Positions 4,742 through 58,702 of a stretch of DNA of 64,000 nt are shown in pieces. The notes below the pieces were generated by a model. The model saw nothing but the letters and a program-made list of their open reading frames with translations. It ran no database searches and was not told the origin of the DNA. The position numbers and the translations under genes were made by a program. Each line of letters starts with the position of its first letter. Positions within the stretch are counted from its first letter, which is position 1. Source of the stretch: an uncultured Candidatus Saccharibacteria bacterium. Its GTDB lineage: Bacteria > Patescibacteriota > Minisyncoccia > Phycocordibacterales > UBA9973. Location of the stretch: the NCBI GenBank assembly GCA_964527235.1, contig CAZGNC010000003.1, positions 47,809 to 111,808 of the forward strand, written 5' to 3'.

Positions 4742-4763
4742 TAAAATATACTACCATAACAAA

Positions 4764-4792
4764 TTGACAAATGTGAGGGATAATAATATCCT
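4764..4792 (+). promoter_or_regulatory. sigma70-like promoter TTGACA-17-TATCCT upstream of GC-rich cassette 1
   Basis: TTGACA 4764-4769, TATCCT 4787-4792. Confidence 0.45.
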
Positions 4793-4839
4793 CTTCGTTA
4801 GATAGCAACTTGCGCTGAAACCCGAACCGGGAGGGGCAC

Positions 4840-5253
4840 ATGAAGATCACCATAGCGATAACCATCGTGTTGTCTGCCATCTTGGTAGCAATGCCCAACC
4901 CGTTTGGGTTAAGAGAAGTAAGAACGCCTGATCCACGTGAAGGACGAATCGTGAATCCTGATTCGTCGGGAGGATGGAGTGCGTACGCCAAGGGCCACGC
5001 CAAGACTCGATGCGGCGTGTACTTCTTCCGCGAGAAAGAGGGGCTGCGATTCGTATTCAGTCGCCCAGACTCGGTACGAAGAAGCAATGGTGCGAGAGAT
5101 ACTGAAAGACTCGCACTTGCAAAGAGCTTCACCGCTCAAGGAGCAGAAGAAGACACGCCTAGCGCAATCGAGCTAGGAGGATGGAAGTTCGAAATACGAA
5201 TACCAGAGGAGGACACGAAGAGTATGTCGTGTCTCAAGCAACCCCCGCCGTGA
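4840..5253 (+). CDS. GC-rich cassette 1: small protein (137 aa) with N-terminal signal/TM segment, unknown function
   Basis: SD GGGAGGGG 5 nt upstream of ATG. N-terminus MKITIAITIVLSAILVAMP is hydrophobic. GC about 55 percent versus about 37 percent flanks. Stop codon lies inside the first of two terminator hairpins. Could alternatively be a structured ncRNA. Confidence 0.4.
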   Translation: MKITIAITIVLSAILVAMPNPFGLREVRTPDPREGRIVNPDSSGGWSAYAKGHAKTRCGVYFFREKEGLRFVFSRPDSVRRSNGARDTERLALAKSFTAQGAEEDTPSAIELGGWKFEIRIPEEDTKSMSCLKQPPP

Positions 5254-5315
5254 ATATAGCCGGCGGGGGAAGATCGAAAGCAACACACCAAAAAATATTT
5301 GGTGTGCTTTTATTT
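5242..5315 (+). terminator. tandem hairpin terminators (CCCCCGCCG..CGGCGGGGG then CACACC..GGTGTG + T-run); second also serves murE on the minus strand
   Basis: 9-bp GC stem then 6-bp stem followed by CTTTTATTT. Confidence 0.6.
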
Positions 5316-6570
5316 AGAATAACTTCTGAAACTCTTCAACATCATTGAAGTGGTGTTTAACCCCCTTGATGTCTTGATAATCTTCGTGACCCTTGCCGGC
5401 ACACAGAATAATATCCCCTTTCTCTGCTAAACGCATGCTTTCTTCGATAGCTTCGCGTCTGTTAGGAATAGCCTTTATGTTCTCAGAAGAACCAGGCAGA
5501 AGATCGGACTGCATTTCCCATATTATTTTCTCGGGATCTTCGTTGCGTGGATTGTCAGATGTGAAAATAGCTATATCAGAAAGTGTAGCTCCAATACGGC
5601 CCATCTTCGAACGCTTGAGCGGGTCACGGTCTCCCCCGCAACCAAAAACCGAAATTAATTTCTTACCCTCAGGTTTGATTTCGCGCGCGACCATTAGCAC
5701 TTTCTCTAAAGCGTCTGGAGTATGGGCATAATCAACGATAACCAGGACGCCCTTGGGTGAAGTGAAGTGCTCAAATCTGCCACGAGGAGGCTCGATAGTT
5801 TCTAGTATTTTATTCACTTTTGCCATATCAAAACCAAGTAAATTGCTAACAGACCAGACAGTAAGCAGGTTGTAGGCATTGAACTTCCCCAGAAGCTTTG
5901 ACTTTATATTAGTCTTTTCAAATCGCAGTTCTAAACCTGAAAAATCAGCTTTTACTAACTCTCCTCTGAAAGAATTATACAAAGTCGCGGTGCCGTCAAC
6001 GTTCGAAAATTCATAAAGATATTTTCTGGCTTGAATGCCTTCTAACATTTTCTTCCCGTACTCATCATCAGCATTAGAAAGGGCGAAGGCGCTCTCAGGA
6101 AGCATCTGGAAGAACTTCTTCTTGGCTTCAAAATATTTCTCAAATGTCTGATGATAGTCTAAGTGATCATGAGTAAGGTTGGTGAAAATCCCCCCAGCAA
6201 ACTTTATTCCTGCAACTCTATTCTGATCTACAGCGTGAGAAGAGACTTCCATAAATACATATTCGCAACCTTTTTCTACCATTTCGTCTAGAAGTTTAGT
6301 TAAAGTCACCGAATCCGGTGTGGTGTGAGTCACACCCCTAACTTCCCCAGCTATTATATTTTCTACGGTCCCAATAAGCCCTGCTTTGTATCCCAAGGCA
6401 GTTGTGATTCGATACAGAAGTGTCGCGGTAGTGGTCTTACCATTCGTACCTGTAACACCAACAACTTTCAACTTTCTAGAAGGATTGCCGAAATAGTGCC
6501 TTGCCGAAAAAGACTTTACCCTCCACCAAATCTTCTTTAGATTTTTGATAATTGGTTTCATTTTATTCAC
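5314..6570 (-). CDS. murE: UDP-N-acetylmuramoyl-L-alanyl-D-glutamate--2,6-diaminopimelate (or L-Lys) ligase
   Basis: VVGVTGTNGKTTTA P-loop, MEVSSHA motif, DYAHTPDALEKVL and GDRD motifs. The listed start is GTG; an internal ATG at about 6561 is equally plausible. Confidence 0.85.
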   Translation of the reverse strand: MNKMKPIIKNLKKIWWRVKSFSARHYFGNPSRKLKVVGVTGTNGKTTTATLLYRITTALGYKAGLIGTVENIIAGEVRGVTHTTPDSVTLTKLLDEMVEKGCEYVFMEVSSHAVDQNRVAGIKFAGGIFTNLTHDHLDYHQTFEKYFEAKKKFFQMLPESAFALSNADDEYGKKMLEGIQARKYLYEFSNVDGTATLYNSFRGELVKADFSGLELRFEKTNIKSKLLGKFNAYNLLTVWSVSNLLGFDMAKVNKILETIEPPRGRFEHFTSPKGVLVIVDYAHTPDALEKVLMVAREIKPEGKKLISVFGCGGDRDPLKRSKMGRIGATLSDIAIFTSDNPRNEDPEKIIWEMQSDLLPGSSENIKAIPNRREAIEESMRLAEKGDIILCAGKGHEDYQDIKGVKHHFNDVEEFQKLF

Positions 6571-6781
6571 CTAAAAATTCAAAACGATGCATTTTCTTCC
6601 CCTCAAATTCTACTTCTTCTAGAAACATACCAATAGGTCTAACCCACATAGAGTAGTCATCGTAAAGCTTTCGATAAACTACTAAATCCTCACCAGTCTC
6701 AGAATGCTCTGCCACGCCCAACACTTGATACTCTTTACCCTTATAATGCCTATATCTACCAAGTTTTATATTGTTTCTCAT
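6563..6781 (-). CDS. DUF1653 family small protein
   Basis: YRHYKGKEYQVLGVAEHSETGEDLVVYRKLY...WVRPIGMFLE matches the DUF1653 signature. Confidence 0.7.
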   Translation of the reverse strand: MRNNIKLGRYRHYKGKEYQVLGVAEHSETGEDLVVYRKLYDDYSMWVRPIGMFLEEVEFEGKKMHRFEFLGE

Positions 6782-8013: not shown

Positions 8014-8032
8014 AGGCTATAAAGAACAAAAT

Positions 8033-10573: not shown

Positions 10574-10610
10574 TAGAACATATTAGCATAAAATCGAATT
10601 TTCTCCGAAC

Positions 10611-10638
10611 ACAAAAAGAAAAACCCCCTTGCGGGGGC
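10611..10638 (-). terminator. rho-independent terminator (GGCCCCCGCAAGGGGG + T-run on minus strand) downstream of the micro-ORF and upstream of secA
   Basis: 5-bp G/C stem with TTGC loop followed by TTTTTCTTTTTGT on the minus strand. Confidence 0.6.
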
Positions 10639-10655
10639 CTTTCTGAAAGATAAGA

Positions 10656-10733
10656 CTAAGCTCGCTTCTTTTTTGAAGCCTTCTTTGTTGTCTTTTTCTT
10701 TGCTGCCTTCTTTGCTTTCTTTTTTGCTGCCAT
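10656..10733 (-). CDS. candidate 25-aa lysine-rich micro-protein (MAAKKKAKKAAKKKTTKKASKKKRA)
   Basis: ATG..TAG ORF below the 60-aa track cutoff, with its own downstream terminator. No SD, but no native gene here has one. Confidence 0.3.
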   Translation of the reverse strand: MAAKKKAKKAAKKKTTKKASKKKRA

Positions 10734-10768
10734 AATAGTTTTTAAGAACTTAATTTTTTAATTGTGAT

Positions 10769-10815
10769 TTGCAATAATCACGACCTTGAAAATATTTTTC
10801 AAAATAATTATTGCA
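10769..10815. promoter_or_regulatory. nested palindrome: TTGCAATAAT ... TTGAAAATATTTTTCAA ... ATTATTGCAA
   Basis: 10-bp outer inverted repeat enclosing a perfect 17-bp palindrome, in the AT-rich intergenic region between tRNA-Ala and the secA leader. Confidence 0.35.
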
Positions 10816-11095
10816 AGGAACAACTTAATTATCTCGCATATTAAAATTTATTACAATACTTTTTTCACAAAACTGTGGATAACTTTTTTATTTTCAAAAA
10901 TAAAAATATAAAATATTTTTTAAAAAAATTAATTATTTACTTAAAATAAAAAATTCTCGACCTTTCGATCAAGAATTCTTTATTATTATTTTCATTTGAG
11001 GCGAGTGATGGCGAAACTCCAACATATGTGCCTATGTGAGTGCGACCACTCGCCACAGATGAAAACAATATAACCATTATATCATACTATTCTCG

Positions 11096-11166
11096 TGGAC
11101 CCACGGGGAATCGGACCCCGGCCTCGTCCATGCCATGGACGCGTAATACCATTTTACTATGGGCCC
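11096..11166 (-). tRNA. tRNA-Ala (anticodon GGC)
   Basis: Manual fold: acceptor GGGCCCA/TGGGTCC with the G3:U70 alanine identity pair, U8 A9, D-loop with GG, anticodon loop AU-GGC-AU, discriminator A. No encoded CCA. The T-loop is an atypical UCCGAUU. Confidence 0.65.
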
Positions 11167-11192
11167 AGAATGAGATAAATCTATTATATAAG

Positions 11193-11552
11193 TTACAAAT
11201 TGGCAACAATAAAACCAATTAAAACAAACACGAAACCAATGAGTACGTTCCCCTCAGGAGCTGTTTTAAACACTACTTTTGCAATGATTATCTCGGCCAC
11301 AACTAAAGCCGTCCAGCTTGTAAGTGTTACCAACCAGATATTGTTATTAAAAACCTTTATCCCATATAGATAACCTCCTAATAATGCAAAAACTCCAACA
11401 ATAGATACCCATATATACCAATTGTTTAATTTAAATATTTGCAGGACGCTTGCCCCTGATGCACTAACTTTAGCACCGAACACCTGAGCAAGAATCATGA
11501 GAGACTCCCCTAGTGCAATCATTGATAGAGTTAATATTTTTTGCCAAAGCAT
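11193..11552 (-). CDS. small integral membrane protein (4 TM, SMR/EamA-half-like)
   Basis: 119 aa, four hydrophobic helices. Confidence 0.45.
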   Translation of the reverse strand: MLWQKILTLSMIALGESLMILAQVFGAKVSASGASVLQIFKLNNWYIWVSIVGVFALLGGYLYGIKVFNNNIWLVTLTSWTALVVAEIIIAKVVFKTAPEGNVLIGFVFVLIGFIVANL

Positions 11553-11567
11553 GTTGCTGGGTTAATC

Positions 11568-12458
11568 TTATATTCTCTCTAATATATGTTCTACCACATG
11601 ACTCATACGAGCACCGACGGATTCACAAGATTGATGAAAATGAGAGCCATTCTCTAAGTTAGGCAAGAAACTAACATCTGTAAGATATATACCGAATTTA
11701 GGATGCATCGTGAAATGCGTATTTAAATAAAACTTAGCATCTAAATGCCCAAATAAATCTTTAACTAAAGCATAAATCTTCTCTTTTTCGTGTCTAGCTA
11801 GACCAATAATCGGCATAATATATACATCCTCTCCCCGAAACCCAGCAATACTATGCACTTCAGTACTCTTACCTGGTACAAGTTCTTCTACTAGAACACT
11901 TCCCCCATAAGATGAGATATCATCAATAGCCCCAGCTAATTCGTTGAAAGTTTTCGCCACATATACGCCGACATTTGGATTCTCAGGGAAAGATCTAATA
12001 ATCCAAGGTGAACCGAACTTCTCGAAGGTTTCTTTCGCTTTCTTTATCGCATATCTCTCTCGCGGACCATCGAAGTCTTCTTGATATTGAGGGAAGATAA
12101 TATGTCGAGGTAAACTTACCCCCATCTTTTGCATGTGCTCTCGCAACATCTCTCTACTATTCACTAATAAACTAGAAAAGGGCGAGGAGTTAACATGCGG
12201 AATAGAAAAATTATGCAAAACTTGCGTAACTTCAGGTGGCAACGTGCTCCAAACCACATCTACCTTCTCAGCTAGATTTGGTAATGATATCGGCATTCCT
12301 CCCATATGCCACACACCCTCGCGATCTACAAATATATCAACGGGTTTATATTTATGAGAAAGTTGCTCTGATATGAGCGACAAAATATCACCACCTTTTT
12401 TCAAAGAAGATTCATAATGATTCCCTGTCCCGCCACGAAGCACACCGACTCGTTTCAT
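11568..12458 (-). CDS. ddl: D-alanine--D-alanine ligase-like ATP-grasp enzyme
   Basis: N-terminal VGVLRGGTGNHYESSLKKG resembles the Ddl N-domain; ATP-grasp region LVEELVPGKSTEVHSIAG. A TATAAT sits 9 nt upstream of the ATG, so possibly leaderless. Confidence 0.5.
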   Translation of the reverse strand: MKRVGVLRGGTGNHYESSLKKGGDILSLISEQLSHKYKPVDIFVDREGVWHMGGMPISLPNLAEKVDVVWSTLPPEVTQVLHNFSIPHVNSSPFSSLLVNSREMLREHMQKMGVSLPRHIIFPQYQEDFDGPRERYAIKKAKETFEKFGSPWIIRSFPENPNVGVYVAKTFNELAGAIDDISSYGGSVLVEELVPGKSTEVHSIAGFRGEDVYIMPIIGLARHEKEKIYALVKDLFGHLDAKFYLNTHFTMHPKFGIYLTDVSFLPNLENGSHFHQSCESVGARMSHVVEHILERI

Positions 12459-12473
12459 ATCTATAGATTATAA

Positions 12474-12498
12474 CAAAAAAAACCCCGCAAATGCGAGG
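12474..12498 (-). terminator. rho-independent terminator ending the 16S transcription unit (CCTCGCAtttGCGGGG + T8 on minus strand)
   Basis: Hairpin followed by eight T on the minus strand, between the 16S trailer and the ddl start. Confidence 0.6.
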
Positions 12499-12528
12499 TG
12501 TTTTTTGAAAGTCCGCTGTAAAAGCGGT

Positions 12529-12556
12529 TTGCTGTTCTATGTTTTGTTTCGTTCTA
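12529..12556 (-). repeat. 16S trailer half of pre-rRNA processing stem (pairs with leader at 14264-14291)
   Basis: TTGCTGTTCTATGTTTTGTTTCGTTCTA here is near-perfectly complementary to TAGAACGAAACAAAACACAAAACAGCAA at 14264-14291. Confidence 0.7.
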
Positions 12557-12685
12557 TTTTAACTCCAGACCTTTCTCTGGCGTCAGATTCTTTTTAGGAT
12601 ATGAAATCATTATCCATTGTGTCGTCAATTGAGCGACACAACACCGACTCACTAGACTACAATCTTCCGAAGAAGATCGTAGCGT

Positions 12686-14250
<1,565 letters not shown>

Positions 14251-14263
14251 ATTAAAAGTATTA

Positions 14264-25005: not shown

Positions 25006-25033
25006 TTGACATTATTTGTGAATTGTGTAGAAT
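25006..25033 (+). promoter_or_regulatory. sigma70 promoter TTGACA-16-TAGAAT for cassette 2
   Basis: TTGACA 25006-25011, TAGAAT 25028-25033. Confidence 0.5.
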
Positions 25034-25106
25034 ACCAAAACTGCTCAAGGGGCCGGACGAGCGTCCGGAAGCCCGAAAGGCACAGCTCTTTCAGGAGGAT
25101 ACCAAC

Positions 25107-25304
25107 GTGAGCCAGCGCACCGAACCGCACAACCCGGCACAGGACCCGAACGTTTCCTCGCTTATCGCTCCGACCACTCCGACGACCTCCAGCGTGACCG
25201 GCGACAACTCGAGCGGCGACAACAACGGCGGCGGGCGCGACGACGCCGAGCGCGCGGCCGACCAGAGCGATCCGGCGACGAGCCCGGACAACGTCGGCGG
25301 CTGA
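25107..25304 (+). CDS. GC-rich cassette 2: 65-aa acidic low-complexity peptide ending VGG (GTG start)
   Basis: SD AGGAGG 25093-25098, 8 nt before GTG. 5' UTR hairpin CCGGACG/CGTCCGG. Product SQRTEPHNPAQDP...PTTPTTSSVTGDNSSGDNNGGG...PDNVGG. Confidence 0.35.
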   Translation: MSQRTEPHNPAQDPNVSSLIAPTTPTTSSVTGDNSSGDNNGGGRDDAERAADQSDPATSPDNVGG

Positions 25305-25360
25305 CCTCTCCCGAGGCGCCGAAGCAACATCGGGACGGAATACAACCCGTCCCACAAGAA

Positions 25361-25398
25361 GGGGCATCGCAAACATCGCGGTGCCCCTTTCCACGTTT
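25361..25398 (+). terminator. terminator GGGGCATCGC-aaacat-GCGGTGCCCC + TTTCCACGTTT (copy 1)
   Basis: 10-bp stem (one G.U) plus T-rich tail; nearly identical to the copy at 25699-25736. Confidence 0.7.
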
Positions 25399-25428
25399 AG
25401 ACCCAATCCTATTAACACAACTCTACCA

Positions 25429-25456
25429 TTGACATTCTGTCTTGGTAGTGTAGAAT
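25429..25456 (+). promoter_or_regulatory. sigma70 promoter TTGACA-16-TAGAAT for cassette 3
   Basis: TTGACA 25429-25434, TAGAAT 25451-25456; paralogous to the cassette-2 promoter. Confidence 0.5.
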
Positions 25457-25528
25457 ATACATTGAAAGTCCTGATTCCGACATCGATGATCGGAAGTCCG
25501 GGGCACCGTACAACCAAGGAGGCTCCTG

Positions 25529-25681
25529 ATGGCCTACATCCGCAGCACCGACCCAAGGCCCGTCGTTGATAAAGACGACAACAAGAAGGCCGGCCTCGGA
25601 GACAGAGACATCGTCACAGTCGACACCGCGCCAGCACACGACCCGGCAGCTAACGTCAACCTGGCGGCTGGCGGGTACTGA
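25529..25681 (+). CDS. GC-rich cassette 3: 50-aa acidic peptide MAYIRSTDPRPVVDKDDNKKAGLGDRDIVTVDTAPAHDPAANVNLAAGGY
   Basis: SD AAGGAGG 6 nt before ATG 25529; not in the ORF track (under 60 aa); diverged duplicate of cassette 2. Confidence 0.35.
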   Translation: MAYIRSTDPRPVVDKDDNKKAGLGDRDIVTVDTAPAHDPAANVNLAAGGY

Positions 25682-25698
25682 AGTTCGCATCCCACAGG

Positions 25699-25736
25699 GG
25701 GGCACCGCAACATCGCGGTGCCCCTTTCCACGTTTT
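25699..25736 (+). terminator. terminator GGGGCACCGC-aacatc-GCGGTGCCCC + TTTCCACGTTTT (copy 2)
   Basis: Perfect 10-bp stem with T tail. Confidence 0.75.
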
Positions 25737-25754
25737 ATACCAACTTTTTAAATT

Positions 25755-26692: not shown

Positions 26693-26732
26693 GCCCCGCC
26701 GAGAAAAGCGCGGGAGCTTTTCTCGGCGGGGC
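26693..26732. terminator. 17-bp perfect inverted repeat GCCCCGCCGAGAAAAGC-gcggga-GCTTTTCTCGGCGGGGC (bidirectional)
   Basis: A/T runs on both sides; terminates cassette 4 on the minus strand. Confidence 0.75.
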
Positions 26733-26750
26733 GATATCGCCCTACCATTG

Positions 26751-26885
26751 TTACTCATTGAAATCCTGATCCTCATCCTTGGGGAAAAGGATCATCTTCA
26801 TGGCAGCGGGGACACCCATCTTGTACCCCCACACCGCCAGAAATACAACACCAACAAGGACCAACACCCAAGAGAGCGTACTCAC
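26751..26885 (-). CDS. GC-rich cassette 4: 44-aa single-TM peptide with acidic tail (type I toxin-like) MSTLSWVLVLVGVVFLAVWGYKMGVPAAMKMILFPKDEDQDFNE
   Basis: GTG start 26885 with SD GGAGGTG (26891-26897) 5 nt upstream. Promoter TTGACT(26940-26945)-16-TAGAAA(26918-26923) on the minus strand. Terminator immediately downstream. Confidence 0.4.
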   Translation of the reverse strand: MSTLSWVLVLVGVVFLAVWGYKMGVPAAMKMILFPKDEDQDFNE

Positions 26886-26941
26886 GAGACCACCTCCAGT
26901 TGAGTGAGACTATAATATTTCTACTACAAAAAACACCAAAG

Positions 26942-27166
26942 TCAATCCTCAATGACTATGAGTTTCGATGGGCTATGATGCCCGTTCACTATGCGCACTT
27001 TATTTCTAGGAATTTCTAAACGCTCGGCGAGGATCTCGAGCACTCGAATATTTGCCATATTCCGCTCGGCTTCTTCTCGCACAGAAATTTCAAAGTGGTC
27101 ATCACTTTTCTGCAAGAAAATTTCTTTCTTCACCCCCGCGGTGACTTTGACGTGGATGTATCTCAC
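26942..27166 (-). CDS. DUF167 (YggU/UPF0235) family protein
   Basis: [74 protein letters not shown], a 74-aa ORF read as the YggU/DUF167 fold from this general pattern; no defining motif identified. Confidence 0.55.
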
Positions 27167-32650: not shown

Positions 32651-32654
32651 AAAA

Positions 32655-37717: not shown

Positions 37718-37746
37718 TTGACGAAAGAGCGAAAATGTGCTATACT
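37718..37746 (+). promoter_or_regulatory. sigma70 promoter TTGACG-17-TATACT for cassette 6
   Basis: TTGACG 37718-37723, TATACT 37741-37746. Confidence 0.5.
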
Positions 37747-37763
37747 GTATGTAGTAGTGTCCA

Positions 37764-38084
37764 ATGGGCACCGTGTCCTTTGGAAACCCAACCCCGACCG
37801 GGCGGAGAATAATGCTTGTAAAGATTCGCTGGAACACAAAGGTGCTGAGACTGTGTCTCAAGCACGCCAAGATCACCCGTCACGAGAAAAATGTCATCGG
37901 AAAAGCGATGACTACGGGTGAAGGGCTGGTGAATGCATTACGCATACTGGCCCAAATCCTCGCCTTCGTGGCAATGTCCATGGAGGCAAAGGAGGAAGTA
38001 ACTCACGTTGTCGTCGAACGTCATCGTGAGGCATCTGGTGCCGACCTTATCGAAGAAGAGGTTGGCGTCGGAATCGCCGCCTAG
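37764..38084 (+). CDS. GC-rich cassette 6: 106-aa (or 90-aa from ATG 37812) small protein, unknown function
   Basis: GC-rich ORF immediately after the promoter; the alternative start at 37812 has GGCGGAG upstream; shares its terminator with cassette 7. Confidence 0.35.
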   Translation: MGTVSFGNPTPTGRRIMLVKIRWNTKVLRLCLKHAKITRHEKNVIGKAMTTGEGLVNALRILAQILAFVAMSMEAKEEVTHVVVERHREASGADLIEEEVGVGIAA

Positions 38085-38090
38085 CGGTCA

Positions 38091-38138
38091 TCGCCGCCGA
38101 GGAGCCGCCAACCGCGCTCTCCGGCGGCTCTTTCGTTC
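38091..38138 (+). terminator. terminator CGCCGCCGAGGAGCCGCCaACCGCGCTCtCCGGCGGCTC + TTT (copy 1)
   Basis: 8-bp GAGCCGCC/GGCGGCTC stem; duplicated at 38375-38420. Confidence 0.6.
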
Positions 38139-38158
38139 AATAACTTAGGTGAAAAACC

Positions 38159-38371
38159 ATGAAAGAAGAAGAACGGAAAGAGCTTGAAAAGGCACTGAGA
38201 GACATCAAGCATCTAGCAATCAGATGTACGACCGATGCCTCGGGACACCTCAAGCTCTCAGAAGGAGACAGGGCCTTGATGGCAAAATACGCAGAAGCGG
38301 TCATCCAGATATTGAGCACAGCGCTCGCGACCGCAAGAAGTTTCAGGAAGAAGAAGCGAAAGAAGAAGTAA
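38159..38371 (+). CDS. GC-rich cassette 7: 70-aa helical protein with poly-Lys/Arg tail (…FRKKKRKKK)
   Basis: SD AGGTGA 7 nt upstream of ATG; followed by the second terminator copy. Confidence 0.4.
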   Translation: MKEEERKELEKALRDIKHLAIRCTTDASGHLKLSEGDRALMAKYAEAVIQILSTALATARSFRKKKRKKK

Positions 38372-38374
38372 CAC

Positions 38375-38420
38375 GCCGCCGAGGAGCCGCCGACCGCGCT
38401 CCCGGCGGCTTTTCAGTTGT
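38375..38420 (+). terminator. terminator copy 2 (CGCCGCCGAGGAGCCGCCgACCGCGCTCCCGGCGGCT + TTT)
   Basis: Near-identical to 38091-38138. Confidence 0.6.
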
Positions 38421-40519: not shown

Positions 40520-40587
40520 AGATCTCATTAGAAAAATTATAAAATTTATTAATACCCGCCTGTCGGGACAAACAAGAAAAAACAAAA

Positions 40588-42570: not shown

Positions 42571-42571
42571 A

Positions 42572-43723: not shown

Positions 43724-43725
43724 AC

Positions 43726-45024
43726 CTACTTAGCCGGTTCAAGCACAACAGATACTGTCTTCTCTTCTCCGCGGTGTAATATTTTCAACTTCACCAAATC
43801 CCCTACATTTTTATTTCGAATCTCTAGTGCCAGACTAGTATCCTCATCTAACTTCACCCCATCTATCTCTAGAATAATATCATTCTCGACAATTCCCGCC
43901 TTATCAGCTGGGGAACCTGGGATCACAGCTAGCTCATTTTTATTTTCACCTGCTTTAACTATCACACCATAATCTACCGACAAATCATTCTTCTCTTTCA
44001 TTTCTGCATTGATTGCAACATAGCGCACACCCAAATAAGGACGAATTATCTTACCAGTAGTTTTCACTGATTCAATAGCTCCCTTTACGCTATTTATAGG
44101 CAAGGCAAAACCAATGCTTTGTGAACCTTGTGCGACAGCAACATTGACACCAACTACCCTACCAGATAAATCCAACAGTGGACCACCAGAGTTCCCAGGA
44201 TTAATTGCCGCATCGGTCTGTATCACATGATCCAGAAGTTCAGTCTTTCCAGAAGAATCACCAGCAGTGATAGAACGAGACAACCCCGATACTACCCCTA
44301 CAGAAACTGTATTACGAAATTCAGCTAAAGCATTACCTATCGCAATAACACTCTGCCCAACCTCGAGCGAGTCAGAATTGCCCAAAGAAAGAAATGGGAA
44401 ATCAGAACCATCTATTTTAATCAGAGCAATATCGAGTACTGGGTCGAGAGCTATAACTTTCGCCTGATGTTTCTTGCCATCATTTGTGAAAACGGTATAT
44501 TCAACGTCTTTTTGATCAACAACATGTTTATTAGTGACAATCAGCCCATCTTTAGAAACAAAGAATCCTGACCCTCCTCCTATCTCCTTTTTTTCTGTGC
44601 CATTCTGACGATACTGCGGGAAATTAAACAAGAACCCTGGGAACATATCACCGAACGGACTATCATTGTTCGGATTTACGTAAGTTTCATATTTAGGTAC
44701 TTCTTTAGATATAACAATAGACACAACAGCTGGATTGGTCTTCTTCACCGCACCTACTACAAAAGATTCCTGAGAAAACACAGCCTGCTTATCTAGAAAT
44801 TTCTCTCCAGTGCCACTAGTTTCATTCTTAAGAGAGATGTCTTGAATGTTCTGTAAATATTCGGTAGCAAAATATTCGAACAAGTTCGCTCTAAAATACC
44901 ACGCGAATGCTCCTAACAATACGAGCAATGATAAAAAAGAAAGGAAACTTATAAAAAATATACGTGCGAATTCGCCACGATGAAATATCTTACTAAATAA
45001 TTCTTTAATATTTATCTTTTCCAT
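43726..45024 (-). CDS. HtrA/DegP family serine protease (trypsin domain + PDZ), membrane-anchored
   Basis: GNSGGPLLDLSGRVVGVN catalytic-Ser motif; His/Asp upstream; C-terminal PDZ. Confidence 0.85.
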   Translation of the reverse strand: MEKINIKELFSKIFHRGEFARIFFISFLSFLSLLVLLGAFAWYFRANLFEYFATEYLQNIQDISLKNETSGTGEKFLDKQAVFSQESFVVGAVKKTNPAVVSIVISKEVPKYETYVNPNNDSPFGDMFPGFLFNFPQYRQNGTEKKEIGGGSGFFVSKDGLIVTNKHVVDQKDVEYTVFTNDGKKHQAKVIALDPVLDIALIKIDGSDFPFLSLGNSDSLEVGQSVIAIGNALAEFRNTVSVGVVSGLSRSITAGDSSGKTELLDHVIQTDAAINPGNSGGPLLDLSGRVVGVNVAVAQGSQSIGFALPINSVKGAIESVKTTGKIIRPYLGVRYVAINAEMKEKNDLSVDYGVIVKAGENKNELAVIPGSPADKAGIVENDIILEIDGVKLDEDTSLALEIRNKNVGDLVKLKILHRGEEKTVSVVLEPAK

Positions 45025-53313: not shown

Positions 53314-53315
53314 AA

Positions 53316-53978: not shown

Positions 53979-54018
53979 AAAGGAATTCTAACACGGAAAG
54001 TGTTTTTAAATATTGATA

Positions 54019-54046
54019 TTGAAATTTTAGAGAAAATATGTATAAT
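54019..54046 (+). promoter_or_regulatory. sigma70 promoter TTGAAA-16-TATAAT for cassette 8
   Basis: TTGAAA 54019-54024, TATAAT 54041-54046. Confidence 0.5.
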
Positions 54047-54092
54047 AATAATTAGCCACAGTTCCCCAACCCGCACATCGGAGGACGCGTTC

Positions 54093-54362
54093 ATGAAGGT
54101 CGCATTCCAAACAAACCGCGGAGTCAAGGCTGGAGATAGAGTCCAGGTCATTGACGCAGGAAAAGTCGTTGATACTGGAAGAGTCCTCGGTGTCGACCAA
54201 GCAAAACTCAGACTACAGAGCGACACAGGATCGACAACCGAGTTCGGCTGGTTCCAAACCCTCGGCAAGTGGAAGATGTTATTCGAGGACGAGGAGAAGG
54301 GTCAGTGGTTCGACCCCGATGCTTTCAACTACGACATCGTGCCTGAAACCACGGCCGTCTGA
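54093..54362 (+). CDS. GC-rich cassette 8: 89-aa small protein MKVAFQTNRGVKAGDRVQVIDAGKVVDTGRVLGVD...
   Basis: SD GGAGGA 8 nt upstream of ATG 54093; terminator 54384-54430. Confidence 0.45.
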   Translation: MKVAFQTNRGVKAGDRVQVIDAGKVVDTGRVLGVDQAKLRLQSDTGSTTEFGWFQTLGKWKMLFEDEEKGQWFDPDAFNYDIVPETTAV

Positions 54363-54383
54363 TCAAGACGTCGCATCGCCCCA

Positions 54384-54430
54384 GAGCCCCCGCCGGCACC
54401 AGCCAGCGGGGGCTCGAATTCTTTTATTTC
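54384..54430 (+). terminator. terminator GAGCCCCCGC...GCGGGGGCTC + T-run
   Basis: 10-bp GC stem followed by gaattcttttatttc. Confidence 0.7.
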
Positions 54431-54849: not shown

Positions 54850-54905
54850 TTACTTAGCTATACAAAAGTGGTAATTTTATAAACGAACCCGTTCCCGGAG
54901 GAGTT

Positions 54906-55058
54906 ATGGCTGCGAAGAAGAAGACCGTGCCTTACTGGCGCCGTCTGCAACTGAGGCGTCAGGCGGAATTGACCAGAAAGAAGGCCAAGGCCAAGCCGAA
55001 GAAACGTAAACCACAGCGCCGACTCGTCGCCGTGATCTACGTGTACGAGTACCGCTGA
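54906..55058 (+). CDS. GC-rich cassette 5: 50-aa highly basic peptide MAAKKKTVPYWRRLQLRRQAELTRKKAKAKPKKRKPQRRLVAVIYVYEYR
   Basis: SD GGAGG 5 nt before ATG; terminator at 55083-55119; not in the ORF track (under 60 aa). Confidence 0.4.
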   Translation: MAAKKKTVPYWRRLQLRRQAELTRKKAKAKPKKRKPQRRLVAVIYVYEYR

Positions 55059-55082
55059 ACACCGCGGTATTCGATGAGGGAA

Positions 55083-55119
55083 GAGGGGGCGCTCCGCGTC
55101 CCCTCTCTTTGTTTGATTT
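55083..55119 (+). terminator. terminator GAGGGGG-cgctccgcgt-CCCCTC + CTTTGTTTGATTT
   Basis: GC hairpin plus T-rich tail. Confidence 0.6.
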
Positions 55120-55314: not shown

Positions 55315-55353
55315 CTTTGGCTATAAAATTAGCAATAGGAGAAGGAATCTGGA

Positions 55354-55376
55354 GGATGAACTCCAAGTCTCCCAGC
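55354..55376 (+). repeat. direct repeat of the tRNA-Gln 3' end (TCCAAGTCTCCCAGC) 40 nt downstream of the tRNA
   Basis: 15-nt exact match to 55300-55314, preceded by similar gagga context; att-like remnant. Confidence 0.6.
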
Positions 55377-55414
55377 AGTTTAGTAAAGTATTGAAGGACC
55401 TAGAGAGGTTATAT

Positions 55415-57232
55415 ATGAAATTTAAATCATTCAAAATTAAAAATTATAAATCAATAGTTGATACTGGAGAAGTTATTCTTTCAGGTCACGACAACATTAC
55501 TGTTTTTGCCGGCCAAAATGAATCCGGGAAAAGCTCTGTTTTAGAAGCTTTGAATTCATTTGAAACTGGTAAATTTGATGCAGATTCGAAGCCTTTTACT
55601 ACCAAAGGCACACTTGTTCAAAGTGTGAGTTGCACATTTGAAGTTGATGATAATAAATTATTACTTGAGCAACTGACTCAAGGAATGAGAGACGAGTATG
55701 AGCCTGAGATTGGTGAAGACGATCCTATCTTTGATGATAAAAAGATAAAAAATATAAAAGAGTTTACTCTAACTCGCACATATCCAAACTCCACGGGCAA
55801 ATCTCAACTCGATATAACGCCTGATGTTTTTGAAATTGTTAAGGCAGCTATTCTCGATCGAGAAGTTGAAGAAGAGGCAACAAGAGAAGACGGAACCATT
55901 GAAAAAAAGATTGCCAAAGAAAAGATTATAGATATTGGTGATGATAATTCCAACATGGCGTCTATTTTTTGGAATAATGTTGCCCCAAAGATAATACTTT
56001 TTAATGATTTTTGTGACTTGCTTCCTGATAGGATAACTCTTGCTGATCTTAAAGCAAAAAAGACTGATGTAAAAGGATATCAAGCAGTGAAGAATCTCGA
56101 AAAAATACTCAAACTTAATTTTGTTGATCTTTATGAAAAAGATGACCTAGAACGTGAGGCAATAAGAGATGAACATAATAATACGTTCTCAGTAGATTTC
56201 CAGCAAGCATGGGGACAAAAAATTCACAACGATAATAAAATCGAGGTTAAATATGATTTTGAAAAGAGAGATACCGATGATACCTCTTATGTTAACTTTT
56301 ATACCGAAACTAAAGATCGCCAGAAACTAAAACCTCATCAGAGAAGTAAGGGTTTAATCTGGTTTCTTTCATTTTGGATAGAGTTAAATGCTCAAAATTC
56401 AAGTGACCAACAGCTTGTTCTTTTAGCAGATGAACCCGGATTGTATTTACATGTAAAGGCACAAGCAGACATTCTAAAACTCTTTAAGAAATTGTCCGGA
56501 GAGGGGCATCAAATCTTATATACAACACATTCTCCTAATCTCATTGAGTCAGAAAAACTTAATCGAATTAAACTTGTACTTAATGACCCTAAGGAAGGAA
56601 CAATTCTTGAATCAGTTACAACTTCAAAAATTGATTCTCAGAATAAACAAGACGCTCTTCAACCGGTTGCAAATGCGATTGGATTTTCGATTAGCGATTT
56701 TGCTCTCTCAAGTCCTAAAAATGTAATACTTGAGGGCGTATCTGATTATTTTTACTACCTAGGAATGAGAAAAATACTTGGAAGAAAAGAAGGTTATTCC
56801 TTCGTTCCTGGTATTGGAGTAAGGAAGCAAAATACCCTTGTTTCGTTCTGTGTTGGATATGGGATCGACTGGGTAGCTGTATTTGATGATGATTCGACAA
56901 GAGGACAGGATTCTCAAAAAACCTTCACTGATATAAAGGAAAATTTATTTAATGGTGATGATGTTACGGCCAAACTAAAAATGTATACAACGACGGGTAT
57001 CTCAAGTGTTGAGAATATGTTTACTGTTAATGACATGAAATTAGTTGACGATAAGCTTGCAGTAAAAGCGGATTCCGCAAAATCAGTTGGCGATAAACGA
57101 AAAGTTGTATTCGCTAAATCTTTCTATGAAAAAGTTGAGGGCAACCAAATTACTAAGAAGAAATTAGATGCGGCGACCGTGGCTAATTTTAATAAAGTAT
57201 TTGACTGGATTGAAACAAGTTTAAATTTATAA
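55415..57232 (+). CDS. OLD-family ATP-dependent endonuclease (N-terminal ABC/AAA_15-like ATPase + C-terminal Toprim), stand-alone
   Basis: N-terminal FKSFKIKNYKSI, Walker A GQNESGKSS, Walker B LLADEPGLYLH, Toprim VILEGVSDYFYY...GIDWVAVFDDD. Start could be 55391 or 55415. Confidence 0.75.
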   Translation: MKFKSFKIKNYKSIVDTGEVILSGHDNITVFAGQNESGKSSVLEALNSFETGKFDADSKPFTTKGTLVQSVSCTFEVDDNKLLLEQLTQGMRDEYEPEIGEDDPIFDDKKIKNIKEFTLTRTYPNSTGKSQLDITPDVFEIVKAAILDREVEEEATREDGTIEKKIAKEKIIDIGDDNSNMASIFWNNVAPKIILFNDFCDLLPDRITLADLKAKKTDVKGYQAVKNLEKILKLNFVDLYEKDDLEREAIRDEHNNTFSVDFQQAWGQKIHNDNKIEVKYDFEKRDTDDTSYVNFYTETKDRQKLKPHQRSKGLIWFLSFWIELNAQNSSDQQLVLLADEPGLYLHVKAQADILKLFKKLSGEGHQILYTTHSPNLIESEKLNRIKLVLNDPKEGTILESVTTSKIDSQNKQDALQPVANAIGFSISDFALSSPKNVILEGVSDYFYYLGMRKILGRKEGYSFVPGIGVRKQNTLVSFCVGYGIDWVAVFDDDSTRGQDSQKTFTDIKENLFNGDDVTAKLKMYTTTGISSVENMFTVNDMKLVDDKLAVKADSAKSVGDKRKVVFAKSFYEKVEGNQITKKKLDAATVANFNKVFDWIETSLNL

Positions 57233-57419
57233 TTAATTTTCAGATAGAGACTACTTTTTCTTCTATATATCCTTCCTTGCAATTGATATCTCTTGCTCTA
57301 GTACATCCATAAACAAATATATTTGTACGGATCCATCTTTAAGATTTTTATATTTTTCTTCGGCCGTGACTCCTGATCCCCCTTTTCACCTCCCCAAACT
57401 ATTATGATACTATTAAACC

Positions 57420-57896
57420 ATGACCCACAAAAATACAATTTGTCTCTGGTTTGATAAGGACGCCGAAAGTGCAGCGAACTTTTATGCTGCGACTTTTCCT
57501 GATAGTAAAGTAAATAATGTTTTTCGTGCACCTAGTGATTTCCCAGGTGGCAAGAAGGGCGATGCGCTCACGGTATTATTCACAGTCTGTGGTATTCCCT
57601 GCATGGGGCTTAACGGTGGGCCTACATTTAAGCAAAGTGAAGCATTTTCTTTTCAGATAGAAACAGAAGACCAAGAAGAAACAGACCGCTACTGGAACGC
57701 AATAGTTGGCAACGGTGGCCAAGAAAGCGAGTGTGGCTGGTGCAAGGACAAGTGGGGCCTCTCATGGCAGATCACTCCTCGTGCACTAACTGAGGCCCTA
57801 GCCGCTGGCGGAGAAGAATCTAAGCGCGCATTTGACGCAATGATGACGATGAAGAAGATAGACGTCGCTGCTATAGAAGCCGCCCGCCGAGGATAA
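57420..57896 (+). CDS. PhnB-like / VOC-superfamily protein (COG2764-type)
   Basis: ICLWFDKDAESAANFYAATFPDS N-terminal signature; GC-elevated. Confidence 0.6.
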   Translation: MTHKNTICLWFDKDAESAANFYAATFPDSKVNNVFRAPSDFPGGKKGDALTVLFTVCGIPCMGLNGGPTFKQSEAFSFQIETEDQEETDRYWNAIVGNGGQESECGWCKDKWGLSWQITPRALTEALAAGGEESKRAFDAMMTMKKIDVAAIEAARRG

Positions 57897-57912
57897 TTTG
57901 TAATACTTTTCG

Positions 57913-57941
57913 TTGACATTTCGTGTAAAAAATGTTATTAA
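57913..57941 (+). promoter_or_regulatory. sigma70 promoter TTGACA-17-TATTAA for cassette 9
   Basis: TTGACA 57913-57918, TATTAA 57936-57941. Confidence 0.45.
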
Positions 57942-57975
57942 AATAAACAGAATCTAACCCTTGCCGGAGGTTCCC

Positions 57976-58548
57976 GTGCGTGACTCTTTAGCAGTACTCG
58001 CAGGTGTCCTCGGAGTTATGGGGTTCGTTGTTTACATAGCGTCTATGTTTCGGCGCGTGAACCCCACTCGCCCATCGAGGTCGAGCTGGACAACCTGGGC
58101 CATCTTGAACTTAGAGATCCTGGCGGGTATGCTCAAGTCAGGAACAGCGACTTTACAGATGGCAGGAATAACTCTAGGGTCTCTGTTCGCTGCGGTATTT
58201 TCTTTGCTCTACGGCAAGAAATCCGCATGGAGCCCTCTTGAGAAATTCGTCATGCTAGGCTGCGTCCTGGGGCTGTGCTTCATGATTTACAACCCGACAT
58301 GGGGCATCGCCGTTAGTGTACTCGTCGGTCCAGTCTGCGGTTGTGTGCCAGGGCTTGTAGAGGCCTGGAAAAATCCGAACAAGGAGAACAAGCTCTCTTG
58401 GGCAACTTGGGCAACATCATCGCTAATCAGCGTGATACTGTTGCCCAGTTGGAGCATCGAGAATGCAGCACAACCGGTCAGCTTCTTGGCTAACCAAGTG
58501 GCAATGCTGGTCGTGATATTTACCAGCCCGCACCGGAGACAGCAGTAA
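57976..58548 (+). CDS. GC-rich cassette 9: about 190-aa polytopic membrane protein, unknown function
   Basis: GTG start with SD GGAGG (57966-57970) 5 nt upstream. Five or six hydrophobic helices. Followed by a strong terminator. Confidence 0.5.
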   Translation: MRDSLAVLAGVLGVMGFVVYIASMFRRVNPTRPSRSSWTTWAILNLEILAGMLKSGTATLQMAGITLGSLFAAVFSLLYGKKSAWSPLEKFVMLGCVLGLCFMIYNPTWGIAVSVLVGPVCGCVPGLVEAWKNPNKENKLSWATWATSSLISVILLPSWSIENAAQPVSFLANQVAMLVVIFTSPHRRQQ

Positions 58549-58570
58549 CCACATAGCCTGACAAACCACA

Positions 58571-58625
58571 TCGCCTGACAAAAGGGATCGCCAGATGCCT
58601 ACTTGTGTCAGGCGATTTCTTTTTG
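58571..58625 (+). terminator. terminator ATCGCCTGACA...TGTCAGGCGAT + TTCTTTTTG
   Basis: 11-bp stem, T-run. Confidence 0.65.
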
Positions 58626-58702
58626 ACTTCTTTATAATCCAAGCTTTATGCTACTTTTTCTAAAAGTGATATTATTACAAATAAGTAAAAGATGATATTT
58701 AA

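Follow-up and report, generated by a model that had tools for sequence, protein, structure and literature searches.

Nine small ORFs, which occupy seven intergenic gaps in a 64,000-nucleotide stretch of a Nomurabacteria/Paceibacterota (CPR) genome with a GC content of 41% (the window), form a class of genes apart from their neighbours. They share an architecture and an atypical composition, the longer ORFs are coding, the sites are insertion-polymorphic among relatives, one ORF has been swapped within its surroundings, and the 16S gene in the window lacks the anti-Shine-Dalgarno (anti-SD) sequence. We propose, with moderate confidence, that the nine loci are accessory, moron-like chromosomal cassettes from a lineage-restricted pool, whose ORFs are exchanged inside conserved promoter-leader-terminator scaffolds. 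An earlier note, made from the sequence alone, had singled out these loci, and all nine were checked and are present where it placed them, with the start of c5 moved (Table 1).

Table 1. Positions in the window of the nine cassettes, their parts and the 16S rRNA gene.
Unit	Feature	Position	Strand	Description
c1	cassette	4764..5306	+	promoter, SD, ORF, two hairpins
c1	promoter	4764-4792	+	TTGACA-17-TATCCT
c1	leader	AACCC at 4819; GGGAGG 4829-4834	+	
c1	ORF	4840-5253	+	137 aa, N-terminal membrane/signal helix
c1	hairpin	5242-5269	+	stop codon within loop
c1	second hairpin	5284-5306	+	A/T-flanked
c2	cassette	25006..25400	+	
c2	promoter	25006-25033	+	TTGACA-16-TAGAAT
c2	leader	stem-loop near 25053-25068; AGGAGG 25093-25098	+	5' stem-loop
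c2	ORF (GTG)	25107-25304	+	65 aa, acidic, low complexity, GC 0.71, GC3 0.88
c2	terminator hairpin	near 25358-25390	+	
c3	cassette	25429..25740	+	tandem with c2
c3	promoter	25429-25456	+	TTGACA-16-TAGAAT, as c2
c3	SD	25516-25522	+	AAGGAGG
c3	ORF	25529-25681	+	50 aa, acidic
c3	terminator	near 25696-25727	+	near-identical to c2 terminator
c4	cassette	26693..26950	-	
c4	-35-like box	near 26945	-	TTGACT
c4	SD	7 nt 5' of GTG 26885	-	GGAGGTG
c4	ORF	26885-26751	-	44 aa, single hydrophobic helix
c4	hairpin	26732-26693	-	17-bp, with T-run
c5	cassette	37718..38140	+	
c5	promoter	37718-37746	+	TTGACG-17-TATACT with TG
c5	leader	hairpin 37757-37785; AACCC at 37785; GGCGGAG 37801-37807	+	
c5	ORF (ATG)	37812-38084	+	90 aa
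c5	terminator	38093-38128	+	
c6	cassette	38141..38420	+	75 nt after c5 stop; no own promoter; weak AGGTGA
c6	ORF	38159-38371	+	70 aa, helical, poly-Lys tail
c6	terminator	38375-38410	+	copy of c5 terminator
c7	cassette	54019..54425	+	
c7	promoter	54019-54046	+	TTGAAA-16-TATAAT
c7	leader	AACCC at 54068; GGAGG 54080-54084	+	
c7	ORF	54093-54362	+	89 aa, predicted small beta-barrel
c7	hairpin	54384-54415	+	followed by T-run
c8	cassette	54851..55115	+	5' of tRNA-Gln
c8	promoter		+	weak, TTACTT ... TGGTAATTT
c8	leader	AACCC at 54886; GGAGGAG 54897-54903	+	
c8	ORF	54906-55058	+	50 aa, very basic
c8	hairpin	55082-55106	+	followed by T-run
c9	cassette	57913..58625	+	
c9	promoter	57913-57941	+	TTGACA-17-TATTAA
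c9	leader	AACCC at 57956; GGAGG 57966-57970	+	
c9	ORF (GTG)	57976-58548	+	190 aa, multi-pass membrane protein with internal repeat
c9	hairpin	near 58570-58615	+	followed by T-run
	16S rRNA gene	12692..14256	-	Rfam; 3' tail GGAUUAAUUCAAUUU, without CCUCC

The cassette ORFs have a GC content of 0.48-0.71, compared with a mean of 0.41 in 55 long native ORFs, and the seven cassette-bearing gaps one of 0.46-0.56, compared with 0.21-0.38 in all other gaps. Third-position GC (GC3) runs from the 0.88 of c2 down to 0.54 in c1, the native value being 0.38 +/- 0.07 (in the same 55 ORFs of the initial native list), and third-position T lies at 0.07-0.19 in the cassettes, with the exception of c4, versus 0.34 in native genes. 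Codon-usage and SD statistics refer to a native subset of 43 genes with ATG or GTG starts; measured against native usage, the cassette CAI gives z = -3.2 to -8.0, and every cassette falls below the lowest of the 43 genes. GC and codon usage, which the earlier note had proposed to measure, are non-uniform, and the flanking genes that it put at 35-38% GC are at about 41%. The excess in GC3 is tied to SD motifs lineage-wide: among 1072 ORFs at 58 related loci, an SD-like motif accompanies 71% of high-GC3 ORFs (GC3 at least 0.20 above genome GC), against a background of 9-10%.

GC-rich tracts of this kind could also be structured non-coding RNA genes, whose ORFs would be by-products of T-poor sequence. 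The cassettes match the 16S gene in GC (about 0.5), the tract spans the transcription unit beyond the ORF, and the ORF RNAs of c5, c1, c9 and c4 are more stably folded than shuffles (z = -7.0, -3.2, -3.1 and -2.6, respectively; -6.0 for the whole c5 transcript). For the four shortest ORFs (c2, c3, c4 and c8), an open frame is not by itself significant, T being so scarce, and they are regarded as coding on the grounds of codon-position GC periodicity, which is clear in the cassette ORFs, and of the SD-start geometry found in eight of the nine. The ORF RNAs of c2 and c7, however, are no more structured than shuffles, and c1, c6 and c9 are conserved as protein, with synonymous change saturated; judged by their protein-level homologues in close relatives, these three are coding. 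At the gathering thresholds, Rfam 15 recognizes only the 16S and two tRNAs in the window, and even at E <= 5 it assigns no cassette to the known RNA families that the earlier note had considered, the sole match being a chance one to the c4 terminator hairpin. We therefore regard RNA genes as extremely improbable.

The 16S tail GGAUUAAUUCAAUUU also occurs in five relatives; that the window has no anti-SD is read from this single gene, possible further rrs copies lying outside the window. Native starts are A/T-rich or leaderless. According to the passages of Tsurumaki et al. (2022, RNA 28:1041; PMC9297842) drawn on here, the anti-SD has been lost in a subgroup comprising about half of Parcubacteria; the window resembles these in that its 16S lacks CCUCC and its native genes lack SDs, whereas the same passages are silent on an SD-led, GC-rich minority gene class such as that found here. 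Because the window's 16S is devoid of CCUCC, the SDs of the cassettes are anomalous. GGAG or GAGG lies at most 17 nt from the start in eight of nine cassettes and in no case (0 of 43) upstream of a native gene (Fisher p = 1.2e-8). In these eight the spacing is 4-8 nt, and duplexes with a canonical anti-SD average -9.2 kcal/mol for cassettes versus -0.4 kcal/mol for native genes. Of the two properties of a canonical SD-led gene, a motif 4-9 nt 5' of the start is thus present in 8/9, and a complementary CCUCC in the 16S is lacking. Over the two strands of the window, GGAGG combined with a start and an ORF of at least 30 aa occurs at 16 sites, seven of which are cassette starts.

Some generalizations of the earlier note hold for part of the set. 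The strong SD ascribed to every cassette is borne out by GGAG(G) in eight of them, but c5 has GGAG only and c6 a weak AGGTGA. The near-consensus sigma-70 promoter ascribed to all is found in c1, c2, c3, c5 and c7 (at least 10/12 matches in the scan) and does not extend to the other four, the boxes being weaker or oddly spaced in c4, c8 and c9, and c6 having no promoter of its own. Hairpins cap all nine cassettes (-20.6 to -37.3 kcal/mol), and the tandem pairs do reuse their terminators, which are near-identical in c2/c3 and share a 28-nt arm at 96% identity in c5/c6. Common to c2 and c3 are the promoter and terminator only; leader and ORF differ.

A leader motif absent from the earlier note, AACCC-N(2-14)-GGAG, occurs 10 times compared with 3.3 expected, a count that no shuffle reaches. 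The leaders of c1, c5, c7, c8 and c9 account for six of these ten, two of which overlap in c5. The exact searched form was not found in loci beyond the window; looser variants are present in the related loci L003 and L085.

Compared with shuffles, start regions are as open (z about 0 in c1) or more open (+0.9 to +1.1 in c7-c9), which fits the expectation for working initiation sites. GGAGG could be imagined as a working ribosome-recruitment signal that is independent of an anti-SD, acting via a protein or another rRNA/RNA partner and serving stable GC-rich mRNAs of rapidly diversifying small proteins; we consider this distinctly unlikely. In a more radical variant, a sigma-70 promoter, canonical SD and intrinsic terminator would make the cassettes readable universally, and they may be intended for a host bacterium's ribosomes.

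The insertion of cassettes between adjacent genes was tested for c5/c6 and in part for c2/c3. Synteny of the DS-SecG neighbourhood, which holds c5 and c6 in the window, extends over about 50 genomes. The gap is empty in at least 16 of them (62-77 bp, with only two divergent promoters), and between these two promoters lies the insertion point of GC-rich inserts of 590-1700 bp in the window, L003, L009, L013, L019, L021, L026, L036, L048 and L054. About ten filled gaps carry different SD-led genes in different relatives. The p163-p170 interval likewise holds c2/c3 in the window; its occupants in L055 are three different genes, also GC-rich and SD-led. With the DS-SecG gap empty or otherwise filled in relatives, the loci are accessory and insertion-polymorphic, as supposed earlier, and not core genes. 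No recombinase, repeat or target duplication was found at the insertions.

Exchange of the ORF itself is seen at c5. Its region is ~90% identical to that of L003, the nearest relative, throughout the promoter and the leader up to GGCGGAGA, the ORF is unalignable, and the alignment resumes from the terminator; at the c5 position, L003 carries an unrelated 96-aa ORF within conserved promoter, leader (to the SD) and terminator. The c5 SD is part of the vertically conserved scaffold, outside the swapped ORF. We place the c5 start at 37812 instead of the 37764 proposed earlier, because the upstream ATG sits in the leader hairpin and L003 does not conserve it. Conservation or duplication thus affects promoter, leader and terminator, whereas the enclosed ORFs differ, in keeping with the suggestion of small-protein expression modules. 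In relatives, units of this type also hold genes for REC and LuxR-type regulators.

Orthologs of three cassette genes indicate their rate of change. At the same site in L085, adjoining Mur ligase and SecA genes, the c1 ortholog is 53% identical in amino acids globally (46% in the local BLASTP alignment) versus 80-90% for flanking proteins, with conserved motifs, dN of 0.46, saturated dS and a GC of 0.53 in both genomes. Between c6 and its L003 ortholog, amino acid identity is 44% (dN 0.45, dS 1.58, dN/dS about 0.3), compared with dN 0.012 and dS 0.62 in the adjoining DS gene, and the ends that enclose the c6 ORF, terminator segment included, are 97% identical. The c9 homologues P0010 and P0011 are 55-61% identical over the full length of c9; the GC of the c9 homologue is about 0.50 versus 0.34-0.42 in its flanks; in L083 the layout of c9 recurs next to tRNA-Gln, with a TTGACA promoter, AAGGAGA and a GCCGCCGAG-type hairpin. 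These comparisons speak for coding sequence under purifying selection in c1, c6 and c9. Cassette genes change far faster than the genes around them. The SD is strongly retained in three of six ortholog pairs (c1/L085, c9/L083 and L009/L048) and weak or decayed in c6/L003, L030/L048 and L036/L054, a mixed retention that fits a relic signal too.

Such relics would be expected if the cassettes were recent imports from unrelated GC-rich, SD-using bacteria, phages or plasmids, now ameliorating, with GGAGG and GC inherited from donors and ages that differ. SD decay in half of the pairs, the presence/absence polymorphism of hot spots and the spread of GC3, with the weakest SDs (c5, c6) among the lower-GC3 units, speak for this, and c2 looks like DNA of a high-GC donor. 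HGT and genomic islands are, moreover, documented in Patescibacteria (PMC12455944). Donor-side relatives, however, do not appear: among 5.8 billion clusters and 1.84 billion representatives, c1, c7 and c9 have no homologues beyond a few close Nomurabacteria contigs, c7 being an orphan among the 5.8 billion clusters; no cassette relatives were found in viral (including IMG/VR), phage and plasmid collections; and the REC gene in the L054 DS-SecG hot spot has best matches of only 33-38% identity. The host-derived or foreign origin suggested earlier is thus not supported, and neither is recent acquisition, since c1 and c9 are syntenic and still GC-rich in relatives past synonymous saturation. Furthermore, the c5 SD sits in the conserved scaffold rather than in the swapped ORF, the promoters are A/T-rich, host-style and duplicated along with terminators, and start regions match or exceed shuffled controls in openness. 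Overall, we consider import rather unlikely.

Fast evolution and strain-variable content would also suit toxin, addiction or bacteriocin-like selfish modules, such as type I toxins or small killer/immunity peptides, to which the earlier note had likewise pointed. Type I toxins are hydrophobic peptides of fewer than 60 aa, with translation blocked by mRNA structure and an overlapping antisense RNA; of the nine, only c4 resembles them in its peptide (44 aa) and in an SD predicted to be sequestered in a hairpin (z = -2.1). In the c5 mRNA, a predicted 5'-3' long-range pairing covers the SD. The c8-c9 island also contains an OLD-family defence ATPase, which can be counted on this side. Searches of Pfam, PHROG (E < 0.01), PADLOC and NCBIfam nevertheless gave no family match for the cassette ORFs, be it toxin, antitoxin or defence, and no paired partner gene stood out. 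The products are heterogeneous, from the 190-aa multi-pass protein of c9 and the predicted barrel of c7 to disordered acidic peptides, and the units of relatives include the REC and LuxR-type regulators. Selfish modules are, on balance, highly unlikely. The AF2 model of the c7 barrel (pLDDT 68) is SH3/KOW-like and gave no significant match in a PDB comparison.

Under the preferred reading of exchangeable cassettes, a sigma-70-type promoter in A/T-rich DNA would drive transcription of each unit into a GC-rich leader, which in some carries a 5' stem-loop and in five AACCC-N-GGAG. GGAG(G), 4-8 nt 5' of the start, lies in a stretch that prediction shows as open in c7-c9; in c1 its structure does not exceed that of shuffles. 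Next would come a short ORF, then the long GC hairpin that closes the unit, and the GC-rich, U-poor body and hairpins would stabilise the mRNA. At intergenic hot spots between housekeeping genes, cassettes would be gained, lost and duplicated, their genes coming from a pool restricted to the lineage. After uptake of DNA, homologous recombination between cassettes with similar ends probably replaced the ORFs, since identity breaks sharply at leader and terminator. The products are predicted to be small proteins (membrane, secreted, basic or disordered and acidic) that may act at the cell envelope or in host/phage interactions.

Two sharply different kinds of genes coexist in one anti-SD-less genome: a core with leaderless or A/U-rich starts and an SD-led minority that is GC-rich and individually promoted and terminated. 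This minority is accessory, evolves fast and undergoes exchange at hot spots whose location is fixed. CPR/Patescibacteria genomes contain many unannotated small genes, and the cassettes offer a simple sequence signature to find the flexible small-protein repertoire of uncultured symbionts, a likely place for host-interaction or conflict factors. They also provide a natural test case of whether an SD can function without an rRNA partner, and an example of ORF exchange in a conserved expression scaffold without a recognisable recombinase. If GGAGG does recruit ribosomes, this would be a second, anti-SD-independent route to read an SD-like element in anti-SD-less Parcubacteria.

Among known systems, phage morons, a term reportedly introduced by Hendrix and colleagues for extra genes in lambdoid prophages, are single genes with their own sigma-70 promoter and intrinsic terminator, often encoding a small membrane or surface product. 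The cassettes are alike in having their own promoter (except c6) and terminator (9/9), a composition different from their neighbours, an insertion between genes adjacent in related genomes, and products that are often small membrane or surface proteins. They differ in lying outside prophages, flanked by genes for MurD-type ligases, MsrA, a deoxyhypusine-synthase-like protein, SecG and 6-phosphogluconolactonase, with no PHROG or viral-contig relatives, in exchanging the ORF within a conserved scaffold, and in a host 16S without an anti-SD to match their SD. Minimal mobile elements of Neisseria are islets at intergenic hot spots that are exchanged by transformation and flank homology; variable content between conserved flanks, empty sites and the lack of mobility genes are shared with the cassettes, which, however, are much smaller, each with its own expression signals, and have their crossovers within the cassette, at leader/SD and terminator, not in flanking housekeeping genes. 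Integron cassettes, finally, which are promoterless ORFs with an attC site, arrayed beside an integrase, attI and Pc, also consist of a compact ORF followed by an imperfect inverted repeat, with swappable content and tandem units with similar 3' hairpins. No integrase was found among the flanking proteins scanned, and in contrast to integrons the units described here are dispersed over seven sites in 54 kb rather than arrayed at intI/attI, possess a promoter per unit or pair, and end in hairpins with T-runs that are terminator-like.

In the seven intergenic gaps that hold the nine small cassettes (c1-c9), GC content is 0.46-0.56, as against 0.21-0.38 in all other gaps of the window. The cassette ORFs themselves have a GC content of 0.48-0.71, with GC3 exceeding GC2 in most, and third-position T at 0.07-0.19 (c4 is the exception) compared with 0.34 in native genes. 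Their adaptation to native codon usage lies 3.2-8.0 standard deviations under the native mean, beneath the lowest native gene, and the uniform GC and codon usage that the earlier note had named as grounds for abandoning its reading was not found. The GC contrast it described is real, although the flanking genes have about 41% GC, not its figure of 35-38%. A GGAG(G) motif stands 4-8 nt from the start in eight of the nine cassettes (versus native genes, Fisher p = 1.2e-8), c6 having AGGTGA only, so that the proposed strong Shine-Dalgarno (SD) sequence at every locus holds for all but one. The mean duplex energy with the canonical anti-SD is -9.2 kcal/mol for cassettes and -0.4 kcal/mol for native genes, and cassette starts make up 7 of the window's 16 sites combining GGAGG, a start and an ORF. 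Long terminal hairpins, also claimed for each locus, occur in 9/9 (-20.6 to -37.3 kcal/mol), while near-consensus promoters are confined to c1, c2, c3, c5 and c7, which are among the few sites with at least 10/12 matches; those of c4, c8 and c9 are weaker and c6 has none. The nine distinct small-gene loci are borne out. Overlooked previously was a shared leader motif, AACCC-N(2-14)-GGAG, with 10 occurrences where 3.3 would be expected; the leaders of c1, c5, c7, c8 and c9 account for six of these, c5 contributing two that overlap. Exact-pattern searches of the loci fetched from related genomes revealed no wide family of leader or terminator motifs.

The only 12/12 consensus promoter (TTGACA-18-TATAAT) in the window parts scanned (40001-44000 excluded) faces the 3' end of a minus-strand gene in antisense orientation, and inside this gene lies a GC-rich stretch (0.53-0.55). 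A loose GC-island scan and an all-against-all BLAST of GC-rich ORFs were dropped as too noisy, and the detector was misled in two related loci (L061/L068), where an apparent GC-rich, SD-led ORF is the Gly/Phe region of DnaJ.

The cassettes are genes, not known RNAs: no Rfam family matches them at the gathering threshold or at E <= 5, which disposes of the known non-coding RNAs raised earlier as a counter-explanation. At the same site in a related locus (L085), adjoining Mur ligases and SecA, c1 has an ortholog that conserves the motifs PNPF, DPREG, NPDSS-GW, RCG-YFF and LRFVFSR at 53% identity (dN 0.46, dS saturated), compared with 80-90% for the flanking proteins; among 1.84 billion representatives, one relative of c1 was found. 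In c1 the 5' arm of the terminator stem codes for the conserved C-terminal residues KQPPP, and the loop contains the stop codon; it may therefore be the hairpin, not the protein, that accounts for this conservation. A distant-homology search for c9 returned only two relatives, aligned over the full length at 55-61% identity, and c7 has no homologue in 5.8 billion clusters. In DNA so poor in T, the four shortest ORFs could well be open by chance; for these, a coding role is suggested by SD-start geometry and by the periodicity of GC across codon positions. Compared with shuffles, ORF RNA folds strongly in c5 (z = -7.0) and to a lesser degree in c1, c9 and c4 (about -3); c2 and c7 fold no better.

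No credible protein-family match for any product, and no link to toxins or defence, was found in Pfam, PHROGs, PADLOC or NCBIfam, and the toxin/addiction-like nature once suggested is not supported. The protein c7 is predicted to form a small, generic SH3/KOW-like barrel (pLDDT 68) without a significant PDB match, and the c1 model (pLDDT 42) was unusable. The c9 product, a multi-pass membrane protein, contains an internal repeat; its profile matched nothing in the PDB and gave no link to the SemiSWEET (MtN3_slv) gene neighbouring its homologue in L083. That SemiSWEET gene is likewise GC-rich (GC3 0.67), with an SD (CGGAGGTGG) and a TTGACA promoter, and a 213-aa ORF nearby is paralogous to c9, at 25% identity. 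The cassette products diverge fast and comprise membrane, signal-anchored, basic and acidic-disordered proteins, a combination that would fit envelope or interaction factors.

Coordinates of the features discussed
Feature	Sequence	Position	Strand	Remark
12/12 consensus promoter	window	2104-2133	+	
Gene entered antisense by this promoter	window	2141-3436	-	
GC-rich stretch inside that gene	window	2391-2715		
c1 terminator hairpin (KQPPP codons in 5' arm)	window	5242-5269		
Corresponding hairpin of c1 ortholog	L085	1113-1140		
AT-rich intergenic region	window	10574-11094		521 bp
Its lowest-GC part	window	10801-11000		
16S region without 23S	window	11095-14256		
ORFs downstream of 16S	window	11568-12458, 11193-11552	-	
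16S 3' tail	window	12692-12710	-	
16S rRNA gene	window	12692-14256	-	
Native starts considered for -10-like box	window	12458, 24917, 27651, 38459, 63010		examples, by eye
Very large ORF	window	18895-23328		1477 aa
Very large ORF	window	28625-32740		1371 aa
Low-GC block	window	27.7-33.6 kb		
Deoxyhypusine-synthase-like gene (DS)	window	36684-37694	-	
c5 start	window	37812		corrected from 37764 of the earlier note
OLD/AriA/GajA-like ATPase	window	55391-57232		613 aa
SemiSWEET gene	L083	1658-1936	-	
Paralogue of c9	L083	2262-2903	+	213 aa
DS-SecG gap with miniature unit	L022	7708-7870		

The window (GC 0.41) contains, according to Rfam, one bacterial 16S rRNA gene and two tRNAs. Identical contigs occur in the Logan runs SRR14271365 and SRR14271372 of the source samples. 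Its DS protein has relatives of 82-99% identity in about 55 MAGs, mostly labelled Candidatus Nomurabacteria, Paceibacterota or Patescibacteria, with 'uncultured Candidatus Saccharibacteria' on some records. The 16S 3' tail reads ...GUGGAUUAAUUCAAUUU; since this stands where E. coli has GGAUCACCUCCUUA, CCUCC is absent. The tail GGA(A/U)UAAUUCAAUUUGAAAA is common to six genomes (window, L014, L016, L042, L052 and L053) and is thus conserved without CCUCC. According to Tsurumaki et al. (2022; PMC9297842), about half of Parcubacteria have lost the anti-SD motif. No 23S gene follows the 16S gene; two ORFs on the same strand and then tRNA-Ala(GGC) lie downstream, and the rRNA genes therefore appear unlinked. 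Elsewhere, an intergenic region without an ORF has a GC content of 0.29 overall and 0.17 in its lowest part, and the shorter of two very large ORFs (GC 0.35) lies within a low-GC block that may be another accessory region, of opposite compositional sign.

The sole 16S gene visible in the window cannot pair with the cassette SD, which leaves this canonical SD with no visible partner. SD-start spacing is canonical; relative to shuffles, the regions around the starts of c7, c8 and c9 show less structure (z about +1) and that of c1 shows no excess of it (z about 0), and c4 alone is predicted to sequester its SD. Comparison of the window with the related locus L003 places the c5 SD in a vertically inherited scaffold, and between c9 and its L083 homologue the SD is the sole leader element retained. 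From sequence, these features suggest that the SD matters in this organism. In all 43 native genes, the 17 nt that precede the start lack both GGAG and GAGG. The DNA upstream of these genes is rich in A/T (ATAAA, AATAA), and in about a quarter of them a TAnnnT -10-like box, identified by eye, ends 6-10 nt before the ATG, which suggests that leaderless mRNAs are widespread among native genes. The A/U-rich 16S tail was considered as an alternative SD partner, but native upstream regions pair with it no better than shuffles, so that it seems not to have taken the place of the anti-SD.

The cassettes are accessory and located in hot spots. About 50 related genomes have DS next to SecG. The gap is empty (62-77 bp, two divergent promoters only) in at least 16 relatives, whereas in the window and in L003, L009, L013, L019, L021, L026, L036, L048 and L054 it holds 590-1700 bp of GC-rich DNA, inserted between the DS and SecG promoters. 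The SD-led genes differ among these inserts and include membrane proteins, a receiver domain, LuxR-type HTH proteins and unknowns. The L022 gap carries a miniature unit (TTGACT-17-TATAAT, AGGTGGAGG and an 11-codon ORF, MRRKRAIKALL), a possible remnant or micro-peptide unit. The p163-p170 interval holds c2/c3 in the window and three other GC-rich SD-led genes in L055; for the flank of c7 (6PGL), a metagenome scan gave only distant loci, without cassettes. A tRNA-Gln lies upstream of both c9 and its L083 homologue. In the window it is directly followed by an OLD-like AAA ATPase (PADLOC Old, E = 2e-27; GC 0.34), a 3-dmu-9_3-mt family gene and c9; L083 lacks the two intervening genes, which makes this a small tRNA-linked defence islet of the window. 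In a set of 1072 ORFs from 58 related loci, 71% of the 21 ORFs whose GC3 is at least genome GC + 0.20 are preceded by an SD-like motif, compared with 9-10% of ordinary ORFs.

Within such sites, ORFs are exchanged inside conserved scaffolds. In L003, whose flanking DNA is about 85-90% identical to the window, the c5 unit retains the promoter, leader hairpin, AACCC and GGCGGAGA; similarity breaks off a few bases at most from the start codon and returns at the terminator, and the enclosed 96-aa ORF is unrelated to that of c5. The c6 ORF is 44% identical to its L003 ortholog (dN 0.45; dS 1.58, 2.5-fold the value of the neighbouring DS gene), while the ends are 97% identical. In agreement with the terminator reuse noted earlier for tandem loci, c2/c3 share promoter and terminator but neither leader nor ORF, and c5/c6 share the terminator. 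Crossovers would take place at the similar cassette ends; the insertion sites are marked by neither a recombinase nor a repeat.

As to origin, the sequences do not support the simple recent import from sampled GC-rich bacteria to which the idea of horizontally acquired genes would lead, with c7 an orphan and c1 and c9 having relatives only in similar CPR contexts. The best matches of the receiver-domain gene in the L054 hot spot reach only 33-38% identity. Nothing pointed to a phage or plasmid source either: five IMG/VR scans and a phage tblastn search gave no match, and neither did c2 when compared by blastn with phages and plasmids. Alternatively, SD and high GC could be left over from a donor. 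The high-GC, donor-like look of c2 (GC3 0.88) and the weak or eroded SD motifs in half of the six ortholog pairs keep this explanation alive, but c1 and c9 are still GC-rich in relatives despite saturated synonymous change, which argues against passive amelioration, and we consider it rather improbable. The retained GC of c1 and c9 argues instead for maintenance by RNA-level selection, by biased gene conversion at recombining loci, or by ongoing exchange with a GC-rich pool.

We found no description in the literature of SD-led, GC-rich cassettes in anti-SD-less CPR. The cassettes are a real, statistically solid class that resembles morons, the extra genes of phages with their own promoter and terminator, but is chromosomal and resides in an anti-SD-less CPR lineage.
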